A stretch of 57,479 bases of DNA, counting the filler, from Circinaria calcarea (Eukaryota), in the NCBI GenBank assembly GCA_051942165.1. It is 7 parts of 7 records of this genome, joined end to end, with 100 filler letters (N's around TTAATTAATTAA, not from the genome) between each part and the next. Parts side by side here need not be neighbours in the genome. Positions count along the whole stretch, not along the records: positions 24,688 to 32,812 come from JAVECS010001170.1; 6 more parts are not named here. The stretch is one strand, 5' to 3'. The stretch's first letter is position 1. Every line of letters begins with the position of its first letter. The position numbers and the translations under genes were made by a program. This document shows, one piece after another, positions 8,135-49,359 of the stretch. The notes under the pieces are model-generated. The model did not search any database and had not been told where the DNA came from. It was given only the letters and a program-made list of their open reading frames with translations.

Positions 8135-8234
8135 NNNNNNNNNNNNNNNNNNNNNNNNNNNNNNNNNNNNNNNNNNNNTTAATTAATTAANNNNNNNNNN
8201 NNNNNNNNNNNNNNNNNNNNNNNNNNNNNNNNNN
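8135..8234. other. Artificial contig linker (N44-TTAATTAATTAA-N44)
   Basis: 100-bp N run with a central six-frame-stop 12-mer; identical to the five other linkers. Confidence 0.98.
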
Positions 8235-16361: not shown

Positions 16362-16461
16362 NNNNNNNNNNNNNNNNNNNNNNNNNNNNNNNNNNNNNNN
16401 NNNNNTTAATTAATTAANNNNNNNNNNNNNNNNNNNNNNNNNNNNNNNNNNNNNNNNNNNN
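16362..16461. other. Artificial contig linker
   Basis: N44-TTAATTAATTAA-N44. Confidence 0.98.
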
Positions 16462-17349: not shown

Positions 17350-20300
17350 TTATCTACGCGAACGTGCCGCCTCGTTCTGTAATCGTTGATCCATCGTAAT
17401 CGACTCCAGCTGCTCCTGGAAATCCTTCGTGATGGCTAGGACAGTCTTAAGATGAGTAACATTCAGTCTTCCATCTCCATCGGTCTCATTGGCCTTGCTC
17501 CGGGCCAGCGATAGCGCCGACGAGACCACATTACGAATTTGCCGGCCGTTCAACTTGTTCTCGCTGCCGTATTCATCAATGAACTCGAGGATGCCTTCCG
17601 TGTTCTTGATGCTGTCAGGGTGGAGCTGTGCAAGAAAGATGCGGAAGATCTGCTTCTTCTGAGCCTTTGTTAAGTCCTCGTACCGGATCGCGAGGTGGAT
17701 ACGCGATTGGACTGCAATGTCCAGGACGTTGATGCGGTTGGTTGTTAGGATCATGATACCGTGGTAAAATTCAAGGACGCGAAGTAAAACTGAGCTGAAT
17801 TAGTAAAGCTCCTCCCAAAACCACTTTTCATCTGAGATTCCATACCTGATACGAGGGCATTCCGGTTAGGTTCCGAGTTACTCGTACGTGCCTCTAAAAA
17901 TACATCGGCTTCGTCGCTAATTCCATAGTAAGTGAATAGCTCGAACTCGTGTTAGAAATGTGGGATTTGACCTACACAAGCAAGACAGCCTCCCATTTGC
18001 CAGCAAGGTAGAACATTTGTTCCAAGTTCTTTTCTGCTTGAGAGGCATTGAGGCCAATCTCAGCGACGCTAACAATAAAGAGTGGCCTTCCAGTAGCTTC
18101 AGCGATAGTCTCCGCTGTGAGCTAAACCACACATACAACCGTGAGTAGTCGGCTCTCACTTTTTTTTAGGAGTACTTACTGTTTTTCCTACTCCAGGAGG
18201 ACCTTTTCACATTAGTAGCACTCATCAATGAGGATGGATCCGCATTTAACTGACCATGCAGTAGAAGAACAAGGCCTTTCCCCTTATCCTCGACGATGTC
18301 TTTTACTTGAGTCCTGTCACCTGATCTGTCTCCTCCTCTTCCTTCGTGCTCGTTTACGAGGGCTTGAATCATTGATTTGTATTTCTCATCGAGTTGAAGT
18401 TGGTTTTTGAACATTGATGGCTGCTTTCCTGGGACGTCTGAGGTTTGGTCAACGCTGAACTGGCCCCACATCTTCTCCTTTGTCGAATAGCCTAGGAATC
18501 TCGGCGGAAATAATAAGAAGGCATCTTCATTAGGATCCTTTCCCAACCCATTGGCTAATCGACGGGCTTCGTCTAACGACTCATTCAAATCTCCAACCCA
18601 ACAAGGTTCTTTGTCTCCGAGTATATGAACACCAGCTCCTAAATACCCATTAGCTATACGTACTAGCCCCGGGTAGCACGACAACAAAGCGAGGATTACC
18701 GTACTGCAAGAAAGCTTCGGGGTCAACAATAAACTTTCCTTGGACCTAAATGGCATGTCAGCTCTAATGTCTTAGCGGGTATACCTGAAGCACTTGCCAC
18801 GACTGTTTTCCGATGCTGTTTCTCCCTTAAATTTGAAGAGTTCTTCTCGTCAATGTTTGATCGACTCTCGTCTTCCTTTTCCGGTTGTTAGTGAGCTAAG
18901 TGCTATCTTTGAGATCCTATACTCACGGTTTCGTTTTTGATAGATCTAATGACACTCCGTCTATCAGACAGGGCCTCACCTTTATAGGAGTACATTTGCG
19001 TTGAACCAGGCCCGCTTCGGACAATTTTGTTGTACTTAGCTCCTCGCATCTTCAGTACTTTGAGGAGCTCTTCCTCATCTTCACTAGTACCGTCTTTGTG
19101 ATATTTGATCGGGTAGCAAGGGAGTAGGTTGATACCCTTGGTACCTCGAAACTTTTCAATATCCAACCAATAATATACTTTGCTCATCTCCTTCCCATTC
19201 CAGTCCCAACACCATGCAAGTACACTTAGCGTTCGGGGAACAGGTGTCTCATAGGGAATCGGTGCGGCCTCAACTTCGAAGACCTGAAGTGTGTTCAGGA
19301 ATGGCTTTGCGACTATTTTAGTCTTTGGAGGAAACAAGGTCCACATGGTCTCGTAAGTTGTGATAGCAGCATTAAGGTTGGAGTCTCGCGTTTTGAAATA
19401 TTTCTCAAGCTCTGGTGCGGCCCTCACAGTATCCAAGAGTCGTGCAAGATCTTCGCGTGCTTGTTTCTTATTTGGTAGATCATCTGGGTTCGGTGTCGCT
19501 GCTGCTTCGAGCTTTTCCCAACTATGGACCTAGTTGAATCACTAAGGTCAGCAATCGAAGAATACTTTATAAAGATCACATGAGACAGGCTTAACTACTG
19601 AATATTGTTGTCCGATCCGCCGAATGCTCACTTACTAAGGATGCGAATGGTGCGCCCATTTCAACAGTGTCACCATCCAAATTCTGCCCAGGATAATCTG
19701 TCCCAATCTGTTCTCTAAGCAGATCACGGAGCCCTTCTGCTTCGATGTCGATTTCACTAATTGCATCTTTGATCCCAGTTTCTGGGTCCATTGTCCTCCG
19801 AAAGGTGAACGCTATGCCTCCATCATTATTCCTTTTCTTGAATTCACCGAGATCAACGTCTTCTTGGGCTCCAGTTGTCTTATTCCATTGGCGAACTATA
19901 TTTCGGTACCTCGATTTTGCCTTCTCGTCCTCCGTCTTCTCCTTGTCGGCGGCCTTGTTTTGGTCCTTGGGGGCCTTGTATATCTACATTAGATTATTTA
20001 CTCGTCGCGTAGTAGGAGCTGCATCTTCCGCAAGCTTGCCTAATCATACCTCGGATACCATTTTACTCTCATTTGAGTTCCCATTTTCCTTGTCGGCCTT
20101 GGAGTCGTTGGTCTGTTGCACTCCCGACTTGTCTCCGTCTCGGTCGATAATCGTGTCAGGGAGTTTCTTCGAATCAGCATTGAGAAGAGCTTCTAGCTGA
20201 GCAATGCGCTTCTCAAGTAGCTCCGCGTATCGTTGCTGCATGCTAAAGTCTACGCTGACGGGCAGCTTGTGTGTCACACATTAGCAAGGTAGCTGTTATG

Positions 20301-21193: not shown

Positions 21194-23687
21194 ATGGACT
21201 CCTCCGTGTTACTGGACCCGATTGCACAAGATGCCGCTGACGAATTGGTGGATAATACAAATGAAAAATGGTTCCAAAAGCAAGGGACTGACAGCGCTAA
21301 TGAGTAAGTCTACCGAGATATTTATTTTACATCAGTGCTCCGTATATGAGCCCAGTTTATACTCAGAAGTCTAAAGCATGGCTACTTGGAGTATACTAAT
21401 GCAGGATGTATTGCATCCGCCTGAAGCTTGCCAATCCCTGTTGTGGTAGCCTGTTTAATGCGCTACATGTACTTTTTTTTAATTATATCTCGAGCCCGAT
21501 TGGGACTAATCTATATGGTAGTCAGGTCCTACGGCCTGCCAAAGAAGCTATTCAAGGACATGGTTACTTTCGGGATAAGCTCCGGTTGGGCTCAAGAAAC
21601 AAGCAAGCGAACGCAAAGATTGCAAGTACGAGGACTGCCTTGGAGCAGCAAATTGCCGAATATAAACAAGACTCCAACTCCTTCGGCGATTTGAGACAGC
21701 AAGCAGCCGATTACATTACCCAGGCGAACGGCTTCCATAAGAAATATCAAGAAGACCGAACGACTGGTGCCAAGAAGATTGGGCGGTACGCCCAAAGCTT
21801 TGTAAACAGCTTTGCCGACTTTCTGTCGGTGTATTCCGGTATTATCGAGTTGCTTAAGGGAGCAGGACAAATTTACGGAACTGTGGCATACGAGACATTA
21901 TCGATTTTCTTTATTGTATGTTATCTTCGAGACTTTGCAAAAGCACGCCGAGAAGCTGATTGATTTAGATTGTTGTAAATAAAACCGGCAACGATACTAA
22001 AATCGCGGACCTTCTTTTCGAGCTTCGAAAGTCCTTCCCGCAACTAGATGACTGGGTCAATATATACCCTACCCAATCAATAAAGCTGTTGGTGGCCGAG
22101 GTTTATCAGCAGGCTATCCAATTTGCAAGGAATACGTCTAAATATTTCGCCCATTTTTCAAGTAAGGAATTCTCTATAACTCATCAGTTTATATAAAAAG
22201 AACTAAGAAACCTATTCAAATGTTTTCGAGGCCTATTTCTCCATGGGTCAAGTTTTGTTGATTTCTCTAAGATGAAGTCTTAACCCAGATTGGGCGTAGG
22301 GTGGTAGATCAAGAATATATTTGAGATATAAAATTTACTTGACTGTGATGATTCTCTCGAGAAGTACTCATTCGAAGAATTCTGAGGCTGAAAACGAAGG
22401 TGACAGCTAGGCTCTGGATGGCCATTGGAAAACCTCCATCCTTAGGTATCGATCAGACTGTGGCTACACTTCATGCGAAGCTTGCCGAAGTCAATTCCGA
22501 GGCTATGATTCAGCTCCACAAACGAAGCCAGAAAATCCATAACACAGTGGAAGACAACAACGCCCGTATCAAGGAGCTAAAGAATTCTAACCACGCCCTG
22601 GAAAGATCGAACATGGTTCTAGTTAGCGCTCTCGAGAGGCTCGAAGCCCAGCACCAGAAGTTTGTACAGGAAGTTGAATGTACGTAACTTTGAGAATTCT
22701 ATACACTCTGCAGCCAGTCTATAGGCACCTAACGAATGAGTATCCTTCTGAAACAGTAAAGGATCAACAAGATGATAAGCAACAGCTAGAGATATTCAAA
22801 GAGGCATTAGGCGTAGGTTCATCTGGTCTCATTCTTGGTGCTTTGTCCCGTCCCCCCAGAAAGCACGTGGTTTGAACGGAAAATGACTTGCTCAGGTCAC
22901 CTACCCGTCTCCGGAAACCGAGCTCGAAGCCTGCAAAAAGAGTCAACTTAACGCATTCGCAAAGCTACCCAGCCATCGGCGAAGTCCAAAAGTAGAGTAC
23001 ATGCAAATGAGCCCAGGATTACTCTCTACATCCGAAGCCTATCAGAAATGGCAGGACAGCGCTCAATCCTGCCTTTTGCTTTTAAGTGGCCGTACCGCAT
23101 CGGAGGGACGCAATAGTCGTGGCGACACTCACTCCTGGCTCTCTCCGGCCACGACGTACGTTACCGAAGAATTGCGGAAGCAAGACCAAAGGGTAGCGTA
23201 TTACTGCTGCCACCCCGATCTCCGCGCCGAGGACCATTCGGGGAAAGAGATCATCTCGACAATCATATACCAGATGCTAGACTGGAAGCCCGCTATTCTC
23301 CGTCACCGAAACCAGCAATTCCGATCAGTGGTGCAGAGTCCGGCGTGGCAAGATCCGGGAGACGAGAGCGCATCCATTGAAATCATGTTCCGACTAGTGC
23401 GCGAGATACTCGCTGAGATCAAGGACTTGGGTAGAATCACCGTGGTGTTGGATCGTGTCGATCTGTGCAGCTGGGAATTACACCATATCATGAAGGCACT
23501 GACGGGACTGGTTTTGGACGAGTCGTGGCACCTGAAGATTATGGCCACAATGGCTACGGCGCGTGACTACTGGGATGTTGATGATTTGGATGACACAGCC
23601 AGCGGCCGCGTTCTAATCCACCAGGGCTGGGATCAGCGGCAACTGACGCCGCAGGAGATGCAGAAACGGCTTCATTCGCCGCACTGA
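21194..23687 (+). CDS. NACHT/STAND-like protein with helical N-terminal domain, degenerate P-loop and no C-terminal repeats, multi-exon
   Basis: Exons splice in frame: FLSVYSGIIELLKGA..YGTVAYETLSIFF/IVVNK..IYPT..LVAEVY, a coiled-coil-like stretch, then YQKWQDSAQSCLLLLSGRT, VAYYCC, IISTIIYQML, ITVVLDRVDLC and LKIMAT. This is the layout of the N-terminal half of a fungal NACHT domain. Confidence 0.7.
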
Positions 23688-24587: not shown

Positions 24588-24687
24588 NNNNNNNNNNNNN
24601 NNNNNNNNNNNNNNNNNNNNNNNNNNNNNNNTTAATTAATTAANNNNNNNNNNNNNNNNNNNNNNNNNNNNNNNNNNNNNNNNNNNN
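24588..24687. other. Artificial contig linker
   Basis: N44-TTAATTAATTAA-N44. Confidence 0.98.
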
Positions 24688-24772
24688 TTTATATTTATTT
24701 AATTTATAATATATTTAATTTTTATAATATTAATTGTTTTTGTTATTCTATAATAATTAATTATTAAAAATT
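24688..24772. repeat. Nearly pure A/T tract at contig start, probable RIP-degraded repeat relic
   Basis: About 85 bp with only a few G/C and many TpA steps, followed by a G12 run. Confidence 0.45.
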
Positions 24773-25880
24773 GGGGGGGGGGGGACATACTGCGGCATTT
24801 AACCGGATGCGGCATAGCTTAGGGATCTCTGGTAAAGAATTAACGGCGGCATATACCACCGCTGTAACCAGTCACCGCTAATCGCCCGGTTTACCTCCAA
24901 CTTTACACCCTTTCCCTAGCTGGGAGAACCGTCTTTACTAATTGACGTGGTGTAACGAAGGATTGATATGGTGTCCGGCTAGGATGATTCAAAGCACTAT
25001 CTACTATGCCCTAGAACTACCTTACCGTGTTTCTTGGCAGTTTGAATTGCGCATATTTGGTATATTCTGTTTCCCCCTAGACACGGTGTATTCTATTCCA
25101 TGATTCGTGTCAAGCCTACTCGACTAATCATACCTTATGGTCAGGGAGAGGGCATGCGCCCAGTCTGGAGCAACTCCTTAGAAGGAATGGCAAGATAATA
25201 GTTTTGGTATGCTAACCCCCTCTCTTAGTTACCTGCTAGGCTTAGCAATACTTATTGCCCAATAACAACACCAGACTGCTCGGTACTCACACCTGCTTAA
25301 GGCTGAAACTATGACCAATATATGCGGCGAGCTATGTTTTATATTAACAGTTTCAAGTCCTTAACGGAGCTACTCTGCATATGTCTTTGCGTGGCTAAGC
25401 ATCTACCCACAAAGCTATCCTTCGTTGGTTAGCTTAGTAACCATATTTTTAATTATCAATATATATGATTGCTTGAAGCAATATGTTCTGTTGCCATCTA
25501 ACGCTCGACTTACCAAGGATACCTTTCACGTTGTTATCACCCAAGATTGGCAGGACTTTTTATACTGTACGCTATTTCACACCTAACATCCAACATGCTT
25601 CCTTGATCTACAAACGCCTTGCGGGCGTTAAGGCGAACCTTAGGACTGTTCCAGCCCGCCATATGCAATTTCATGATTATGAAGCTACCTAGAGGGGAGG
25701 CGGAAGTCACCAACATTGGGGAGATTAACAGCATTTACTACGCCAATCCAACTGCTCACTGTTTCCCTTCTATTTGGAAACGAAGTTATATATCGCCATG
25801 CTGAGTCCTAACTTCGCCATCCACAGCTGTGCCCTGACCTGAATCATATAACTCTATTTACTCCATCCCGATATATTAAC

Positions 25881-25887
25881 TATAAAA
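25881..25887 (+). promoter_or_regulatory. Candidate TATA box of the secreted-protein gene
   Basis: TATAAAA about 220 bp upstream of the ATG at 26102. Confidence 0.35.
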
Positions 25888-26101
25888 CCTCAGCTGGAAC
25901 ACGGAAGATCTCCATTATCACTCAAACAAACTCCACGACCTCCAGTATCATTCAAAGCGCTGGTTGCTTGACTACCTCATCTGTTCCTATCTTTTATATC
26001 CGTCTCTCAAATAATACGCCTGCGATCAATTAAGTGCACCTATATCTTTCAGTCTTTCCACTCCTTCTCTTAGTCTCGAGTTTAGCCTCTCGATACACAT
26101 C

Positions 26102-26961
26102 ATGAAGTTCTTCACGTTCGCCGCGGCTGCTCTTTGCTCCCTCGCACTGGGGTCCAGAGCGGCGCCTAACATAGATGGCCGATCAAACGCCCTTACCTCG
26201 CAACATTTAGCGTATAGTCTCCGCGCAAGAGATGCAGTCGCCGACGTTGGAGTCCTCATAGACCAAATTGCCGATATCCGCCTGCAACATCGAGCCATTC
26301 TTGGCAGAGCCCCTGCAAAAGGAACTTCTGGTTCTCCTGGAGGTTCTCGTGCTGGCTCCCCAGGACCGTCTACCGGAGGGACAGCAGCCTATACTAGAAT
26401 GTCTCAATATAAACCTGGTATGCAAGCCGGCCGTCGCTACATGTTCGAAGTTATCCAAAAGCCAGGAGGAGAATATCTCCATGGAACGAAAATGCAGGCG
26501 TATTGCGATAAAAAGGGTTATAAACAGTTTTCTTCTTGTTGGCGACGTCAAGGCTGATGCCCGAGGGAAACTGGACTTCTCGGGAAACATGTGGGATCTT
26601 CTCAAAGGCGAGGATGGCAAGCGCACAAACACTGAGGTGGACAAGCAACGATTTGATGCCGGTAAAGGTAACAGCCTGCAATTCAGATATGTTGGAGAGA
26701 CAACAGGGGTTGATGAAGATATCACCAGATTCGGTAAGTGCACGATAAGCTTAAATCTCAGGTCGACCAGCAGCACACGCTAAGAACGGAATAATAGGAA
26801 ACGATATCAATAAGGCGAATGGCGAAAAATGGAAGGGAGATAAGTATGACTGTAAGAGCTTTACAGAACAACTCGCAGCAAAGATAAAAAAATATAACGA
26901 CAATTTCCGGGGAGATATCAAGGTGTATATGTGGTGGAGCTGGGCAAGATGGCTAGACTAG
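26102..26961 (+). pseudogene. Secreted effector-like protein with one frameshift near 26525 (pseudogene or assembly indel)
   Basis: Signal peptide MKFFTFAAAALCSLALGSRA. Coding-like sequence continues in a shifted frame (FLLVGDVKAD...FRYVGETTG), then an intron at 26734-26797 (GTAAGT..GCTAAG..TAG) and a last exon containing KYDCKSFTEQLAAKI. Confidence 0.65.
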
Positions 26962-27159
26962 GGTTCTTTGGGCGTTTGGGCGCAAGCGTAGAAGGATACG
27001 GGGCAGAGCTTTGACAGCATACAGTCTTTACCCCATATATTCGAGTTAGTATATAGATAACAGAGCAAGCAGTAAAGCACAGAGCTGCGCATTGCTATTA
27101 CGAGCACCATACTGTAGCAATCAGTGCATCTCATATTGTCTTCGATTGTCCCATGGCTG

Positions 27160-27459
27160 CCAGTAGTCCGGCAGTACTGCCAGTCCGGACTGCAGTCCAA
27201 GTATTAATTTTAGTGGAAATTAAGCACGGGGAAAGAATAGTGAGGAACTTTCGGAGTCTTGATTTTCCGCGTCATTTAGGCTATAATCTAGGCTCAATGA
27301 GGCTAAATTTATATTTATATAAGTTTTGGCAGTCCGGACTGCGGTCTAAACTGACAGTTCAATCCAGTATACTAAACTGGACTATCAGTCTCAGTCCACC
27401 CTTCGAACAGCCAAGCCAATCACAGTCCAGAGGCTGGACTGCACTGTTGGGACTACTGG
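27160..27459. mobile_element. MITE-like non-autonomous DNA transposon relic (300 bp)
   Basis: 10-bp perfect terminal inverted repeats CCAGTAGTCC...GGACTACTGG. Multiple internal CAGTCC/GGACTG motifs, including the palindrome CAGTCCGGACTG at 27181 and 27330. AT-rich centre. No target-site duplication seen. Confidence 0.6.
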
Positions 27460-27906
27460 TAACCCTATCCAACAATCACTTTCTTAAGCCAAAGGTACTT
27501 CTTCTGACGATGCTGCATCACTCTCCTCTCCGCCAAGTAACTCAGTGTTGCCTCCTCCCTCTGCCGCAAATTGGCGATAGACCTTGGACAGGTTGCCAGG
27601 AATCGCTATGCTGTACCCACGATAGACCAGATCCGGGTTGTGCGGATCAAATTCATGGACGGTAGTTCATGAAGATCGCAGGCTCGATGGGCGATCAGGG
27701 TGTTCGGAGCGTTACGGACCAGCACTCGGTGTCCTGCGAAGAAGGAGGCTCCCCTATTTTATGCGTCTCCATTGAAATTGGTAGTCAATGAGATAACCCA
27801 CGGGCAATCGGCACAACTCTCACCGTGACAATATCTACTATCATTAGCAGCTTCCTACTAGGTCCCCTATGTGCAGAGATTTTACCGATTCAGCATCTTT
27901 ACCGAC

Positions 27907-29236
27907 CTATTCCTCTTCATCTCCGCTAATCGGCTCAGTATCAACGCTTTGCCCAGCCACGAATTTTTGATAAGCATCACGCAGGCGTCCAGAGGTTGTC
28001 TGGCTCATTCCACGGTGAACGAGATCCGGGTTTCTCGGATTGAACTCGTGTACAGTAGTGCCATGGAGCTTGGACGACTTATGGGCAGTCAAAGTATTCC
28101 GAGCGTTGCGCACCATCACTCCATAATCTGCGTAGTAAAACGTTCCCCCATGATCCGCATCACCGTTGAAATTCGTGGTCAAGGAAAAGACCCATGCGTC
28201 ACGATCACCCCTTTCACAGTGGGAATATCTATTCCAATCAGCCCATGAAGATAAATGTGTAGATGAACAGGAGCCGTACTTCTCATATAGGTTCGCACAC
28301 ACGCCACTAGGAGGTCCCAAAGGCAAGTTAGTAAGCTCATGATCTTGATTCCGTGTTTTAACTGAAATCACTGGCTCTGCTGAGCTCTCTAGCGAATTCC
28401 AGCCAAGGCGAGGTAATCCTTCCCAGCTGGCTTCTGCTTCTGCCAAGATTGATGGATCTAGCTTCTTCTGATGGATAGCTGTTAGTAACGAGCTGTATGA
28501 CGTAATGCTATGCATCTGGGTGCTCAGGAATCGCTGGCTGTGAGTTATCCTAGGTATATTTCTGGCCCACATAAAGGAAGGGCTCTTGCGTTCGCCGCAT
28601 GTGTAGCCAAAAAGAACCATCTTACCCCTATCATCTTTCTAGGATATGTCAACAGCGTGAAGATAACCAGTGTAGGAAGAAAAGTACCCTTATATTCCGT
28701 CCTATTTCGAGTTGAGTTGCCATGATTGAGTCCATGTGCTGTAGCACATCGTCGTTTCCCATATACCCCCGGATAACCGCACCAAACGGCTTTCCCGTGT
28801 TTTCGTCCGTCAAGATAACACTTTCATCCTCAGTAACTACCCGCTGCAGCTGCAGCTGATCAAGCACTGTAATCCCAAGACGCTTTTGCCTAGCGTCACT
28901 CAGTCGAGTGTTGTCAAACCAGTGCTGAAGCTGCTCAGCTGCTTCAAGCGACTCGGCAACCCAGCGACTTTTTGGAGGATACGGGTTAGCTAAGGGTTGA
29001 TATTCAACTGTCGGGATAGAAGATTGGGAGTCCCTTGCCTCTTCTTCAGACCAGGTTATTCCCAAGCTGTGGAGGAGATCAGGATCGTTGCGTATTTGGT
29101 TTATCCCAGGGAGAGGGTTGGGTAGGCCTGAGGGATATACTGCATAACGAGCACTTCGCACGCGCTTAGTGGTTTCGGGACTCGACTCCTTGTCTCCCTT
29201 AGTCGCTGTATTCTCTGGTGACTTCGAAGATGCCAT
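27907..29236 (-). CDS. TET/JBP-like 2-oxoglutarate/Fe(II) dioxygenase (3 exons)
   Basis: Introns 28639-28687 and 28229-28279 splice in frame. Resulting motifs: GKMVLFGYTCG, PPSG..YEKYSHCE (HxE), WVFSLTT, GGTFYYADYGVMV, LHGTT (distal His) and HRGMS (candidate 2OG-binding Arg). Confidence 0.65.
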
Positions 29237-30328
29237 GCTTGCAGTGTGAAATCTGTTGAAGCCTTTGTATGTTAATGTGAGGATGCTAGAGTCTCAAAGC
29301 TCAGAGTGTCCAAGTTAAGGCAATTGTACTGGCTTGATAGACTGATCGGGGCGTAAGGACAATAACGTTGATATATAATTAGTACGTAAATACTGTTGAA
29401 GCAGAGTAGGAGCGTTGGCTGTGCTTTGTATCTGGGTGGTGGTAGATACAAGCGTATGTACAAGAAGCTGTGTTGGAGCATGAAATACTAGAGAGAACAA
29501 AATCAAAGCTAGTTAATGGAACTTCAAATGCCAAATTGGCGGTATGTGTGCCGAGATGAAGCATTCCTAGGGCGAATAATAAACGAAGAAGACCACCTCG
29601 GTTGCCATATGATAGACCCAGGCTTAAAGTAGCACCTTGAAGACATGCTTTTCTCATACATATATACTAATGTAAATGCTGATCACGCTGACAACGAAAT
29701 TTAAAGAATATATAAACAATAAGGGTTCTTGAGAAGTTTGGCAGCTAGCAATGCTGATAGGAGATAGAGGACCTAGAGGACCGATGGAACGAGTCGCTAA
29801 CATAGCATCTGACAATGCTAGTCAACAGTCTTAATATGCTTTGCCCACTTGGATCCTAGACAGCAGCACCAACCCAATATCACTCATCAGGGATAACAAA
29901 CCCGCCCTATAAAGGATTACGAGAGGTCTCCTTCATTTCTTAGAACGAGTTAGTATACCTAGCACTACCCTTTCTTCGATCAGAGGTACTGTCGTATCGG
30001 CCATACATGGAGTTTCGACTTACGGTGGATAAGCCATTCCAGGGCTTCCTCTTGAACATTCTAAACCCAACGTCTCTGCTACCCACTCCGTCGAAAAGCC
30101 ATTCTTCAGTATTATCCCTCAAGCGCTTTACTTAAGAGCCACGATCCACGAACGATAGTCACAGAAGCTCAAACACCATGCAGCCACAACTGGGTAATTC
30201 ATATTCGTGAGGTTGTCATCACAACGAAGAAGAGTTGACTGTAACGTCGACTGAGTGCAATCCTATCAGCACATCAGAGCTTGTGATGAGAGCAGGCACA
30301 AATAGGTTCAGGCCGCCCCTGACTTTAA

Positions 30329-30355
30329 GAAGGGCTTTGAGAAGGGCTTTGAGAA
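30329..30355. repeat. Short tandem duplication (GAAGGGCTTTGA x2.25)
   Basis: Directly visible 12-bp unit repeated. Confidence 0.7.
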
Positions 30356-32812
30356 CGGTATCGTATAAAGATGTAAATCAGAATACTGCTTCCGCTATCA
30401 TTTAGCCTCGGTGAAGAGTGCCAAAAACGCCCTGACTGAGTAAAAGCAAGACTTCATGCTTTCATAAGCCTCAGAGTTATGGGACACATAAAATTCATAT
30501 ATACTTCTCTATGTCTTTCTCCCCATACACGTGCAATAGAATGCTGACAAGCTAGGCACATGTCCTCCTGAGCAAACCCGTGTGAATAAATACTTTCCTG
30601 CACGGTTGCTGTGTTTGAGTTTGGGGTTAGAAGGAAGTGAGCAGGAGTCTCCTTATTTGTTGCTGAAGAATTATCCATCTGAGGTGAAAAGTTATCGATG
30701 GATGTTCTCTAGCAATCTAGCTTCTAGCATCGCGGATACTCTAGTACGGGCAGGCGGAGTATACCTGGGTGATCCAAAGATCGGTGTTTATCACCTGACC
30801 TAGAGTATAGTCTGCGAACAGGCTCTGGAGTTTGCTTCCCCGGACTGGAGTCCTGTGGAATTTACGGCGGCATTTCTTGTAATGTGGTGGCAGGCAGAGC
30901 AGCGTACCATGTGGTTTGCAACTCTTACAGCCGCTAGCAACAGGTGCCGTGCCTCACGAGGTCTGTCACCGTCTTGCAAGCACAAACATGGCTGTCGGCC
31001 ATAGCATGGCGAAGGGTGGACGACGAAGTGAAGTCGGAGGTTGGAAGAAGGTCCTTGACTAAGCGCAGCTGAAATTTTGGTGCCTGCAGGTGTGATGCCA
31101 CAGTGCGCCAAGCTCTCCAGAATCGATAGTTACCGTGCTCCCTTAGGTGATGAGCTTGAGACTTCTTCAAGCAAACCGTATATATGATTGTCTTCTAAAT
31201 ATTGTACCTTGTTCTTTCCACGTCCATTTACCAAATCAAAGGGAGACTGGACCTGAAGCAAGGCCGGCGGGCGATAGGACCCCTGTTTGACAACCACGCA
31301 TACTCGATCGATTCATCTGCTTTCACCCCTTCCCGAAAATGGGGTTATCCGCCATTTGACCTATATGTCTAATGAAGGGTACTGCCGGCGGAGCCTACAT
31401 TTACCAATGTATTTTCTGAGCTTGTTGTGCGTCCAACAAATGACCCATCTCGCTCATGAATACCATGAAATCCTATCTCCAGAGCCGTCCAAGAAGGGCT
31501 CAGACACCACCTTCATGGTGCCTAGTGATCTACAAATTTACAGAAAGCGTTGTTCGGTGCAACGTGCCAGAAACCAGATACTGTACTGATATGGCAATAG
31601 TGAAATATCCGTGATCCCCTATCTATCTCGCACTTTGAACTTACTGTTCTACCTCAGTTAATGTACAGCCCTCTGATTGTATGGCCGTCTTAACGCAGAA
31701 TCCTCTTGTCCGTTGACTCAACGCACTCCATGGATTCAACTACGCCGAAAAACCGTTGATTTCCTGAACCTATTTTAGCCAGCCCCTTTCCTCCCCCTCC
31801 TTCCTGATAGACTGACGAAAATTGACTTCGTCAGGTATTATCCATCGTCGAGCCGTCTAACTCTCCAGTACAGCCCACTCGGCACCTACCACCAATATAG
31901 CTTTCTTCGGCTGCCCTCGAGGTAGTACCCCGTCGTTGCTTCTTCCCTTCTTCCGCTCCTGTCCGTAAGAGGCTTTGGAACGATGACGGTGATCAGAGAA
32001 ATACTTCCACTGAGAAGAGGTTGGAGTTGCTTCTAGGCCGCAAGTGAGCGGGCGGTCAAAAATGTGGCTTGTCTACATAGCGAAATCTGCTGGCTGGCTA
32101 GAGGGTTAGGCAGTTGGAACTGGGCCGCGGTTTCAAACGACAAGAAAGGCGTCAAGGATTATGAGAGCAAGACGGAAGCGAATGGGGCACGAGAGCACGC
32201 AGGAAAATGGCCCTACATGAGAATTGGCTTATGAAAATGATACGGAGGGGCCGGGTCACGGCGGTGAGTGAAAGGGGTACGGGAATAAGGAATGTCATAA
32301 ATGGGGGCATAGGCTTTTATAACTATCATTCTATAGGGAGGCTCCTTCCATAGCATAGCAAATGAGTAGTATATAGAGTAGGCAACGAATCTATAAAACT
32401 GTCCATGTACCGGGCCTACTCCCTACGAGCAATTAAATGGATGTATCTTTGAATACAATATGAGCATACTGACCTTTCAACCGCAAACTTACCATGACGG
32501 CTGCCTTTGAACATGGGACGCCGAATGACGAAGCACGCGAGCTTTGACAGATGCTAAATGCCGTTCAAGGAGACTCTTCACAACCACGAAAACCCAGATT
32601 ATATTGATGATTCTTTTTAGGTCTAACTGTTGATATACCCGAGTACTTGACCTAATACTTCTTGGAGAGTCACGGACACAGGAGAGATGCAGATCATGTC
32701 ATATTGATTTAATTAGAATAATCGTAGAAGCCCTTCCCACTTTTCTTTCCCAACCAACCTGCATCGACCATCTTCCTCAATAGAACAGCAGGCCTGTACT
32801 TGCTATCCCCAG

Positions 32813-32912
32813 NNNNNNNNNNNNNNNNNNNNNNNNNNNNNNNNNNNNNNNNNNNNTTAATTAATTAANNNNNNNNNNNNNNNNNNNNNNNNNNNNNNNN
32901 NNNNNNNNNNNN
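32813..32912. other. Artificial contig linker
   Basis: N44-TTAATTAATTAA-N44. Confidence 0.98.
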
Positions 32913-41036: not shown

Positions 41037-41136
41037 NNNNNNNNNNNNNNNNNNNNNNNNNNNNNNNNNNNNNNNNNNNNTTAATTAATTAANNNNNNNN
41101 NNNNNNNNNNNNNNNNNNNNNNNNNNNNNNNNNNNN
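41037..41136. other. Artificial contig linker
   Basis: N44-TTAATTAATTAA-N44. Confidence 0.98.
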
Positions 41137-49259: not shown

Positions 49260-49359
49260 NNNNNNNNNNNNNNNNNNNNNNNNNNNNNNNNNNNNNNNNN
49301 NNNTTAATTAATTAANNNNNNNNNNNNNNNNNNNNNNNNNNNNNNNNNNNNNNNNNNNN
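49260..49359. other. Artificial contig linker
   Basis: N44-TTAATTAATTAA-N44. Confidence 0.98.

Follow-up and report, generated by a model that had tools for sequence, protein, structure and literature searches.

A probable PE-type TET/JBP dioxygenase gene with an HxE iron-site motif in the lichen-forming fungus Circinaria calcarea

We analyzed a window of 57,479 nucleotides (nt), filler included, from the Circinaria calcarea assembly GCA_051942165.1. It contains an intact three-exon gene on the minus strand, running from 29236 to 27907. The gene probably encodes a 409-residue Fe(II)-dependent dioxygenase of the TET/JBP superfamily that belongs to the PE type and to a sub-clade found in lichen fungi; this is the explanation that we consider best. 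To our knowledge, no route other than TET-type enzymes actively removes cytosine methylation. As far as we know, those of fungi are tied almost entirely to transposons of basidiomycetes and Pezizales. The reported host range of this subgroup becomes modestly wider with this intact HxE-type gene, which comes from a lichen fungus and has relatives in at least one further lichen genus. At 409 amino acids (aa), the protein is also a compact candidate for the first biochemistry on a PE-type enzyme, which would ask whether glutamate can replace aspartate in the TET iron site and which substrate is used.

The PE type was defined by Kojima in 2025 (Biology 14:1741, PMC12730594), who split transposon-borne fungal TET/JBP proteins into PU, AG, and PE types. 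According to section 3.4 of that paper, the hallmark of the PE type is an HxE motif in place of HxD. The Circinaria protein reads SHCE at aa 305–308 and, judged by its motifs, belongs to this subgroup. An earlier note on the same DNA had singled out the Glu that stands in place of the usual Asp. The Glu is present, but it is not a peculiarity of this gene: it is a published trait of the PE type (PMC12730594), and the gene adds a member to a kind described in December 2025.

Gene structure and splicing

On the minus strand, 27907..29236 contains two long open frames (214 and 243 codons) that lie one base out of register. They translate into an N-terminal part of 183 aa from the ATG at 29236 and a C-terminal part of 243 aa that runs to the stop codon at 27909..27907. 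Joining the exon coordinates by script gave a coding sequence of 1230 nt, which corresponds to 409 aa plus the stop codon with no internal stops. All 409 codons are open, and the three proposed iron ligands and the glycine-rich motifs are intact. The earlier note had proposed a 51-nt in-frame intron and a product of about 409 aa, and the script splicing agrees with it on both counts. Removal of those 51 nt converts YEKYGSCSSTHLSSWADWNRYSHCE into YEKYSHCE, and every motif in the order that the note had listed (PPSG, Y.KYSHCE, WVFSLTT, GGTFYYADYGVMV, LHGTT, HRGMS) was found in the spliced translation. Coordinates of all features are collected in Table 1.

Both introns are supported by the splicing of two deposited proteins (P0003 and P0154), by the alignment of a full-length homolog (P0161), and by exon-sized open reading frames (ORFs) in relatives. 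All 360 residues of P0154 align with the spliced product and are identical, with a single gap of 49 aa at residues 188–236. Its contig is 8,125 nt long, which equals the length of the piece that carries the gene, so P0154 is evidently the deposited gene model of this locus. P0003 (293 aa) corresponds to residues 117–409, with 281 of 293 positions identical, no gaps, and both introns absent. The 51 nt of intron 2 are spliced out in two deposited models. At intron 1, the junction R|KDDRGKM agrees with P0003, P0154, and P0161. The last of these, a Xylographa protein of 430 aa, aligns across both junctions and retains the 49 residues missing from P0154; a BLASTP comparison of exon 1 with it (E 1e-18) stops at the ...IGRNIR junction.

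Several other homologs are exon-sized ORFs that end or start precisely at the two intron positions. Some begin right after the intron-1 junction (MxxYGY...). Others (P0004, P0160, P0008, P0012, and P0162) run from Y.(K/R)Y into intron 2, where they add non-homologous residues and then stop. P0015 carries an in-frame insert at the intron-2 position and reads on through it. These comparisons suggest that the positions of both introns are conserved among relatives.

Table 1. Positions, within the window, of the gene, its proposed catalytic residues, and associated features.
Feature	Position	Strand	Remarks
Exon 1	29236..28688	-	aa 1-183; N-terminal part of TET-like domain
Intron 1	28687..28639	-	49 nt, GT..AG; shifts the frame by one
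Exon 2	28638..28280	-	aa 184-303, final codon split; conserved blocks G.MVLFGYTCGERKSPSFMWARN and LGPPSGVCANLYEK
Stretch cut out as an intron in P0154	28625..28479	-	in frame, 147 nt; codes for aa 188-236, 49 residues of conserved core
Intron 2	28279..28229	-	51 nt, in frame, GT..AG; immediately 5' of the HxE motif
Exon 3 and stop codon	28228..27907 (coding to 27910)	-	aa 304-409; catalytic core with HxE, GGTFY, LHGTT, HRGMS
H306-C307-E308, codons CAC TGT GAA	28221..28213	-	proposed Fe(II) ligands, HxE (H306 28221..28219; E308 28215..28213)
H358, codon CAT	28065..28063	-	proposed third Fe(II) ligand, in LHGTT
R375, codon CGT	28014..28012	-	in HRGMS; candidate 2-oxoglutarate-binding Arg, 17 residues past H358
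Decayed last exon from another copy	27848..27517	-	directly downstream of the intact gene, same orientation
Contig, the gene's only real context	24688..32812	.	8,125 nt

Conservation, predicted fold, and proposed chemistry

An exhaustive phmmer search of 1.84 billion proteins, with the translation of exons 2 and 3 as the query, returned 173 homologs at E ≤ 1e-3, 45 at E ≤ 1e-10, and 4 at E ≤ 1e-30. With 173 homologs at the first threshold in a database of that size, the match is beyond chance. From 150 listed matches we picked 76 sequences by hand, mainly of about 200 aa or longer, and aligned them (alignment A1; columns are numbered by P0003). The three columns of the proposed iron site are close to invariant: H190 in 70 of 73 rows, E192 in 70 of 73, and H242 in 74 of 75, which correspond to H306, E308, and H358 of the Circinaria protein. 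The HxE...H triad described in the earlier note is thus present and conserved. Two further near-invariant columns, G214 (75/76) and F217 (76/76), form the GGxF motif.

The PE-type sequences in Table S1 of PMC12730594, compared by eye, have their conserved blocks in the same order as the consensus of our family. One homolog, P0063 (phmmer E 4.1e-9 with the exon 2–3 translation), was in the same comparison a close match to the PE protein whose entry immediately precedes the Pyronemataceae row within that table's Pezizales block. P0063 also touches PF20515, "Tet-like 2OG-Fe(II) oxygenase", with an E-value of 0.0015 over profile positions 5–209 of 211. When 33 homologs were scanned against Pfam, 30 were without a family. 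One of the 33 carried the unrelated domains DUF4139/DUF4140. Another of them, P0065 (425 aa), has a C-terminal chromodomain at residues 368–412 (Pfam Chromo, E 5.1e-7), which hints at chromatin-mark targeting in some PE-type enzymes.

Structural models were built for two proteins. The AlphaFold2 model of P0003, made with A1, had a mean predicted local distance difference test score (pLDDT) of 91.7 and a predicted template modeling score (pTM) of 0.90. In a Foldseek comparison of this model with the PDB, all rows listed to rank 16 were CMD1, CcTet, or NgTET1 (E 1.8e-6 to 1.3e-5), with CMD1 first at 1.8e-6; AlkB, TET2, and PHD2 came after rank 16. Re-scoring with VIA-align placed TET-family structures in rows 1–16, led by NgTET1 (Z 16.9, root-mean-square deviation 3.5, 214 residues aligned), TET2 (16.6, 243 aligned), CMD1 (16.1, 245 aligned), and CcTet (14.1), with ALKBH3 next at Z 13.0. 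A search of 48,161 PDB representatives that was independent of Foldseek put the same four enzymes at ranks 1–4 (NgTET1 16.9, TET2 16.2, CMD1 15.8, CcTet 13.8), and the next match scored 12.8. The second histidine of the proposed site provides a weak check. In the VIA-align comparison, the aligned range extends 39 residues past it both in the model (242 of 281) and in TET2 (1881 of 1920, which we take to be H1881).

The full-length model of the Xylographa protein P0161 had a mean pLDDT of 85.9, with residues 1–46 below 50 and residues 48–410 confident. Its best match was TET2 (Z 19.8), with an alignment of 274 residues that starts at model residue 66. CMD1 scored 16.3, and the best match outside the TET family reached 11.8, a wider gap than for P0003. 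Since the alignment with TET2 starts at residue 66, the region encoded by exon 1 belongs to the same TET-like domain. The first 45 or so residues of the Circinaria protein are probably disordered, and a TET/JBP-type double-stranded beta-helix is predicted for nearly all of the rest.

Membership among AlkB-like or prolyl-hydroxylase-like 2-oxoglutarate oxygenases was considered and rejected on structural ranking: ALKBH3, AlkB, and PHD2 scored Z 11–13 over 160–190 aligned residues, below every TET-family row. The earlier note had claimed a TET/JBP-like double-stranded beta-helix, and had said that a different fold or a best match to metabolic 2-oxoglutarate oxygenases would speak against it. Both outcomes were looked for, and TET/JBP structures hold the top PDB ranks for both models, above the metabolic enzymes.

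By analogy with the chemistry of 2-His-1-carboxylate oxygenases and with TET2, NgTET1, and CcTet, a mechanism can be proposed. H306, E308, and H358 would hold Fe(II) as a 2-His-1-carboxylate site. A co-substrate, most likely 2-oxoglutarate and possibly held by R375, would be decarboxylated to give an Fe(IV)-oxo species. This species would then hydroxylate the methyl group that a modified, flipped-out base of the DNA carries. The base would most likely be 5-methylcytosine (5mC), and the biological role would be the removal or re-marking of cytosine methylation.

Several observations weigh against this assignment. Neither translated part of the gene matched any Pfam family, even at E ≤ 10. The family PF20515, "Tet-like", was touched by only 6 of the 76 A1 homologs at E ≤ 1, the best of them (E 0.0015) scoring 19 bits against a cut-off of 27 bits. 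When profiles of alignments A1 and A3 were run against PDB sequences, no TET chain came up, and the rows returned (E 0.22–2.4) were chance ones. The models described above are those of a 96%-identical paralog (P0003) and a 36%-identical homolog (P0161), not of the spliced Circinaria protein itself. That protein departs from the family at conserved columns, with W120 replaced by T (W in 67 of 72 rows), R187 by K, and R207 by F. The fold, moreover, does not fix the chemistry, because CMD1, the top Foldseek match, adds a glyceryl group and takes it from vitamin C rather than using 2-oxoglutarate; the PDB entries for CMD1 include a vitamin C complex. Finally, the available text of PMC12730594 reports no activity for any PE-type protein.

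Other sequence searches gave similar results. There was no match above the curated cut-off to PF12851 (Tet_JBP) or PF20515 (2OG-FeII_Oxy_6), and PF12851 appeared only as an Atlas lead with a score of 0.89. A phmmer search of PDB sequences with the exon 2–3 translation returned only a ribonuclease at E 0.4, and a search of metagenome contigs for related loci with alignment A2 gave 75 pattern matches, of which none were confirmed. Because the Pfam and PDB-sequence searches are nearly blind to this family, the link to TET rests on predicted structure together with published HHpred and AlphaFold comparisons.

Genomic context, host lineage, and alternative explanations

The window is a chain of contigs sorted by size (8134, 8127, 8126, 8125, 8124, 8123, and 8120 nt) and joined by linkers of the form N44-TTAATTAATTAA-N44 at 8135–8234, 16362–16461, 24588–24687, 32813–32912, 41037–41136, and 49260–49359. 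Because the pieces are joined by linkers, genes on different pieces are not neighbors on any evidence here. The other pieces carry housekeeping genes, including XPB/RAD25, PP2C, NDH2, Rft1, a DEAD-box helicase, and a diphthamide synthesis gene. Since ordinary genes also sit on contigs of about 8 kb, a short contig is no mark of a repeat or an accessory region, and the description of this contig in the earlier note as accessory has no basis. The note had also called the gene mobile-element-associated, for which the 8,125-nt contig offers no transposase domain, terminal repeat, or shared repeat.

The gene is present in more than one copy. P0003, whose source name is the same organism and whose contig measures 3,796 nt, represents a second copy, 96% identical at the protein level. 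Immediately downstream of the intact gene is what remains of the last exon of another copy (Table 1). By tblastn it shows 48–52% aa identity in two frames, and its DNA is identical at 209 of 328 positions (64%), beginning at the AG of intron 2 and containing an in-frame TAA and a 1-nt deletion. There are thus at least two copies at 96% identity and one decayed relic. No signal of repeat-induced point mutation was seen. Substitutions between the relic and the gene show no excess in one direction (C>T 18, G>A 14, T>C 19, A>G 17), and the indices for the contig (TpA/ApT 0.92, (CpA+TpG)/(ApC+GpT) 1.21) are similar to those of the other six pieces.

The multiple copies speak for the alternative that the gene is cargo of a DNA transposon whose transposase lies past the contig ends, or which is non-autonomous. 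Every PE-type gene in the 2025 survey is on a transposon, in Pezizales (Helitron, IS3EU) and in Agaricales, according to the portions of PMC12730594 that cover this type, and the 3.5 kb upstream of our gene has no ORF above 109 aa. However, that survey targeted transposons and so says little about host-resident copies. On the contig itself, which may be too short to show one, none of the ORFs had a transposase, Rep, or helicase domain (0 of 41 further ORFs had a Pfam domain at E ≤ 0.05). No convincing terminal repeats, inverted ones included, were found either; the sole flanking pair, 19 nt at 79% identity (27046 and 29652), was treated as chance. No repeat or other DNA is common to this contig and the other six pieces, and the lack of a bias like that of repeat-induced point mutation likewise speaks against visible cargo status. 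The Xylographa relatives, in addition, sit on contigs of 230,659 and 77,245 nt, and each was seen on one contig. We therefore regard transposon cargo as a serious possibility that is still somewhat unlikely.

The placement of the protein among its relatives bears on the question of residence. P0003 and P0154 carry the source name "MAG ... [Circinaria calcarea]", P0006 and P0161 come from Xylographa pallens and X. bjoerkii, and P0153, P0097, and P0155 come from Lyophyllum and Fomitopsis. We built a quick maximum-likelihood tree of 78 rows, consisting of A1 without the 208-aa P0019 and with P0161, P0153, and P0155 added; support is given by the Shimodaira–Hasegawa-like approximate likelihood ratio test (SH-aLRT). 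The window-like protein and both Xylographa proteins fell in an 8-row clade (SH-aLRT 96). This clade nests within a 19-row side that is split at SH-aLRT 97 from a 59-row side, which contains the named basidiomycetes (Lyophyllum, Fomitopsis) and P0063. The tree puts the gene in a sub-clade for which the named sources are lichen-forming Lecanoromycetes (Circinaria, Xylographa). The nearest named relatives are ascomycetes, in keeping with the ascomycete origin stated in the earlier note.

The clade has its own signature. Column 236 is His in 7 of 7 rows, as opposed to Trp in 58 of 69 elsewhere. Columns 258–260 read H-R-G, with R259 in 7 of 7 rows versus 17 of the 67 other rows with a residue there, and with Q258 in most others. 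At column 207, Arg is found in 2 of 7 clade rows versus 57 of 69 elsewhere. One might propose from this that Lecanoromycetes (Circinaria, Xylographa, and relatives) have a vertically inherited HxE-type branch with conserved introns and a distinct pocket signature, resident in the host rather than borne by transposons. If true, this would be a domesticated DNA-demethylation or base-modification enzyme in an ascomycete class from which no such enzyme has been described, and it might differ in its substrate or in how it grips the co-substrate. We put this forward tentatively and consider it rather unlikely as a whole.

A further alternative accepts the fold and doubts the substrate. The protein may not be a 5mC oxidase and may instead act on thymine (as JBP does), on N6-methyladenine (6mA, as CcTet also does), or on RNA, or it may carry out a CMD1-like group transfer. 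CMD1 being the first Foldseek match and lying at most 1 Z unit from NgTET1 and TET2 is in line with this, as is the statement in the PE-type paper that other modifications "cannot be excluded" (PMC12730594). On the other hand, TET2 is clearly the best match for the full-length homolog (Z 19.8 versus 16.3 for CMD1), and three of the four closest solved enzymes oxidize 5mC according to the same paper. We therefore think a different chemistry or substrate unlikely, and prefer a TET/JBP dioxygenase that most likely acts on 5mC.

The co-substrate grip also touches on this point, since no candidate 2-oxoglutarate-binding Arg is family-wide. R375 (column 259), the downstream Arg pointed out in the earlier note, is present and occurs in 7 of 7 rows of the clade, but only in 24 of 74 rows of A1 overall. 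Column 207 is Arg in 59 of 76 rows and F in the Circinaria copy, and the two occur in different sub-clades. A third candidate is R84, which is Arg in 59 of 72 rows and in this copy. Column 187, where most members have Arg, is K here. How the co-substrate is gripped is thus uncertain on the sequence evidence, and in this clade the binding Arg could sit at a different site than in others. Mutual exclusion of R207 and R259 was examined as a possible rule and discarded: 41 rows have R207 only, 8 have R259 only, 16 have both, and 9 have neither.

It is also conceivable that the copy is non-functional, either as a young pseudogene or because the true product is the 360-aa form without 49 core residues. 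The 147-nt stretch that P0154 leaves out is in frame and has near-perfect, textbook splice signals (G|GTAAGA, TACTAAC, AG), the W120 to T change is confined to the Circinaria copies among rows with this column, and a decayed sister relic adjoins the gene. Against this, all 409 codons are open with unbroken ligands and glycine-rich motifs, and the 49-aa block is kept in P0161 and in the deposited model of the paralog (P0003). The block includes the near-invariant columns G78, G82, R84, W91, and N94, and in the P0003 model it folds into two strands of the core and one long helix. We read the removal of the 147 nt as over-prediction of an intron, an error of annotation; an alternative isoform, which would probably be inactive, is also conceivable. 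The deposited model of the locus thus appears to excise 49 residues of conserved core, and we consider loss of function very unlikely.

Lastly, although Atlas look-alike clusters are mainly from Basidiomycota, the named homologs are mostly Agaricomycetes, and the source labels the assembly a metagenome-assembled genome, it is extremely unlikely that the contig is a basidiomycete contaminant binned with the lichen fungus, given that the protein groups with Xylographa proteins from long contigs, apart from the named basidiomycete rows, and is only about 25–31% identical to basidiomycete members.

Other features of the window are recorded here for completeness. The same contig has an ORF of 151 aa at 26102–26554 (+) with a signal-peptide-like start (MKFFTFAAAALCSLALG) and a Gly/Ser/Pro-rich middle, which may run on in another frame to about 26783. 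It matched no Pfam family, and its best Atlas score was 0.77, which gave no lead. At its start (24688–24790) the contig has some 85 nt that are nearly all A/T and then a run of 12 G, which looks like an assembly edge in low-complexity sequence. On another piece, 17350–19529 and 21400–23687 contain ORFs of the fungal AAA+ lid and DUF7025 families, together with an NLR-like gene that is broken across several frames (hits to DUF7708 and to an NPHP3_N/NACHT-type N-terminus); these are unrelated to the dioxygenase gene.

Relation to known TET/JBP systems

The host, and the lack of a visible transposase on the contig, may be two new points. Our literature search found no paper connecting TET/JBP with lichens or Lecanoromycetes, and none naming PF20515. 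Lichens and Lecanoromycetes occur 0 times in the available text of PMC12730594, whose ascomycete screen reports Pezizales only.

The closest known system is the PE type itself. In the sections of PMC12730594 that describe it, this type has marginal sequence similarity to known TETs, has been reported from Pezizales and Agaricales only, and is carried by DNA transposons, namely Zisupton, IS3EU, EnSpm, and Plavaka as well as Helitron. It shares with our family the blocks R.xDxG, G(Y/F)xxGxR, F.W..N, PPxG...Y.(R/K)..H.E, TT, GG.F(Y/F), HGT(S/T), and (Q/H).G, in that order, and the same nearest solved structures (CMD1, CcTET, NgTET, and TET2); P0063 links the two directly by sequence homology. The Circinaria gene differs in that its nearest named relatives are Lecanoromycetes, unlike the hosts named in the available parts of the paper, in that no carrier transposon was seen on its 8.1-kb contig, and in that its clade is a separate branch with its own signature at columns 236, 258–260, and 207.

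The catalytic domain of human TET2 (PDB 4nm6, 5d9y, 7ne3) is the best structural match of the P0161 model. Sequence identity to it is 9–12%, and the Circinaria protein has Glu in place of Asp and is without the Cys-rich zinc region and the large low-complexity insert of TET2.

NgTET1 from Naegleria (PDB 4lt5, 5cg8, 5cg9) and the AG-type CcTet from Coprinopsis (7vpn, 7w5p, 8jkk) are compact single-domain enzymes of similar size. Across our structural comparisons NgTET1 scored Z 16.9 and CcTet Z 13.8–14.9. Both differ from the Circinaria protein in having an HxD iron site, and identity is about 9–13%. In CcTet, Gly331 and Asp337 are linked to 6mA according to PMC12730594.

CMD1 of Chlamydomonas (PDB 7cy4–7cy8) is the top Foldseek match, with Z-scores of 15.5–16.3. 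At about 860 aa it is a different protein in size, and according to PMC12730594 it attaches a glyceryl moiety to 5mC at the methyl group of the base.

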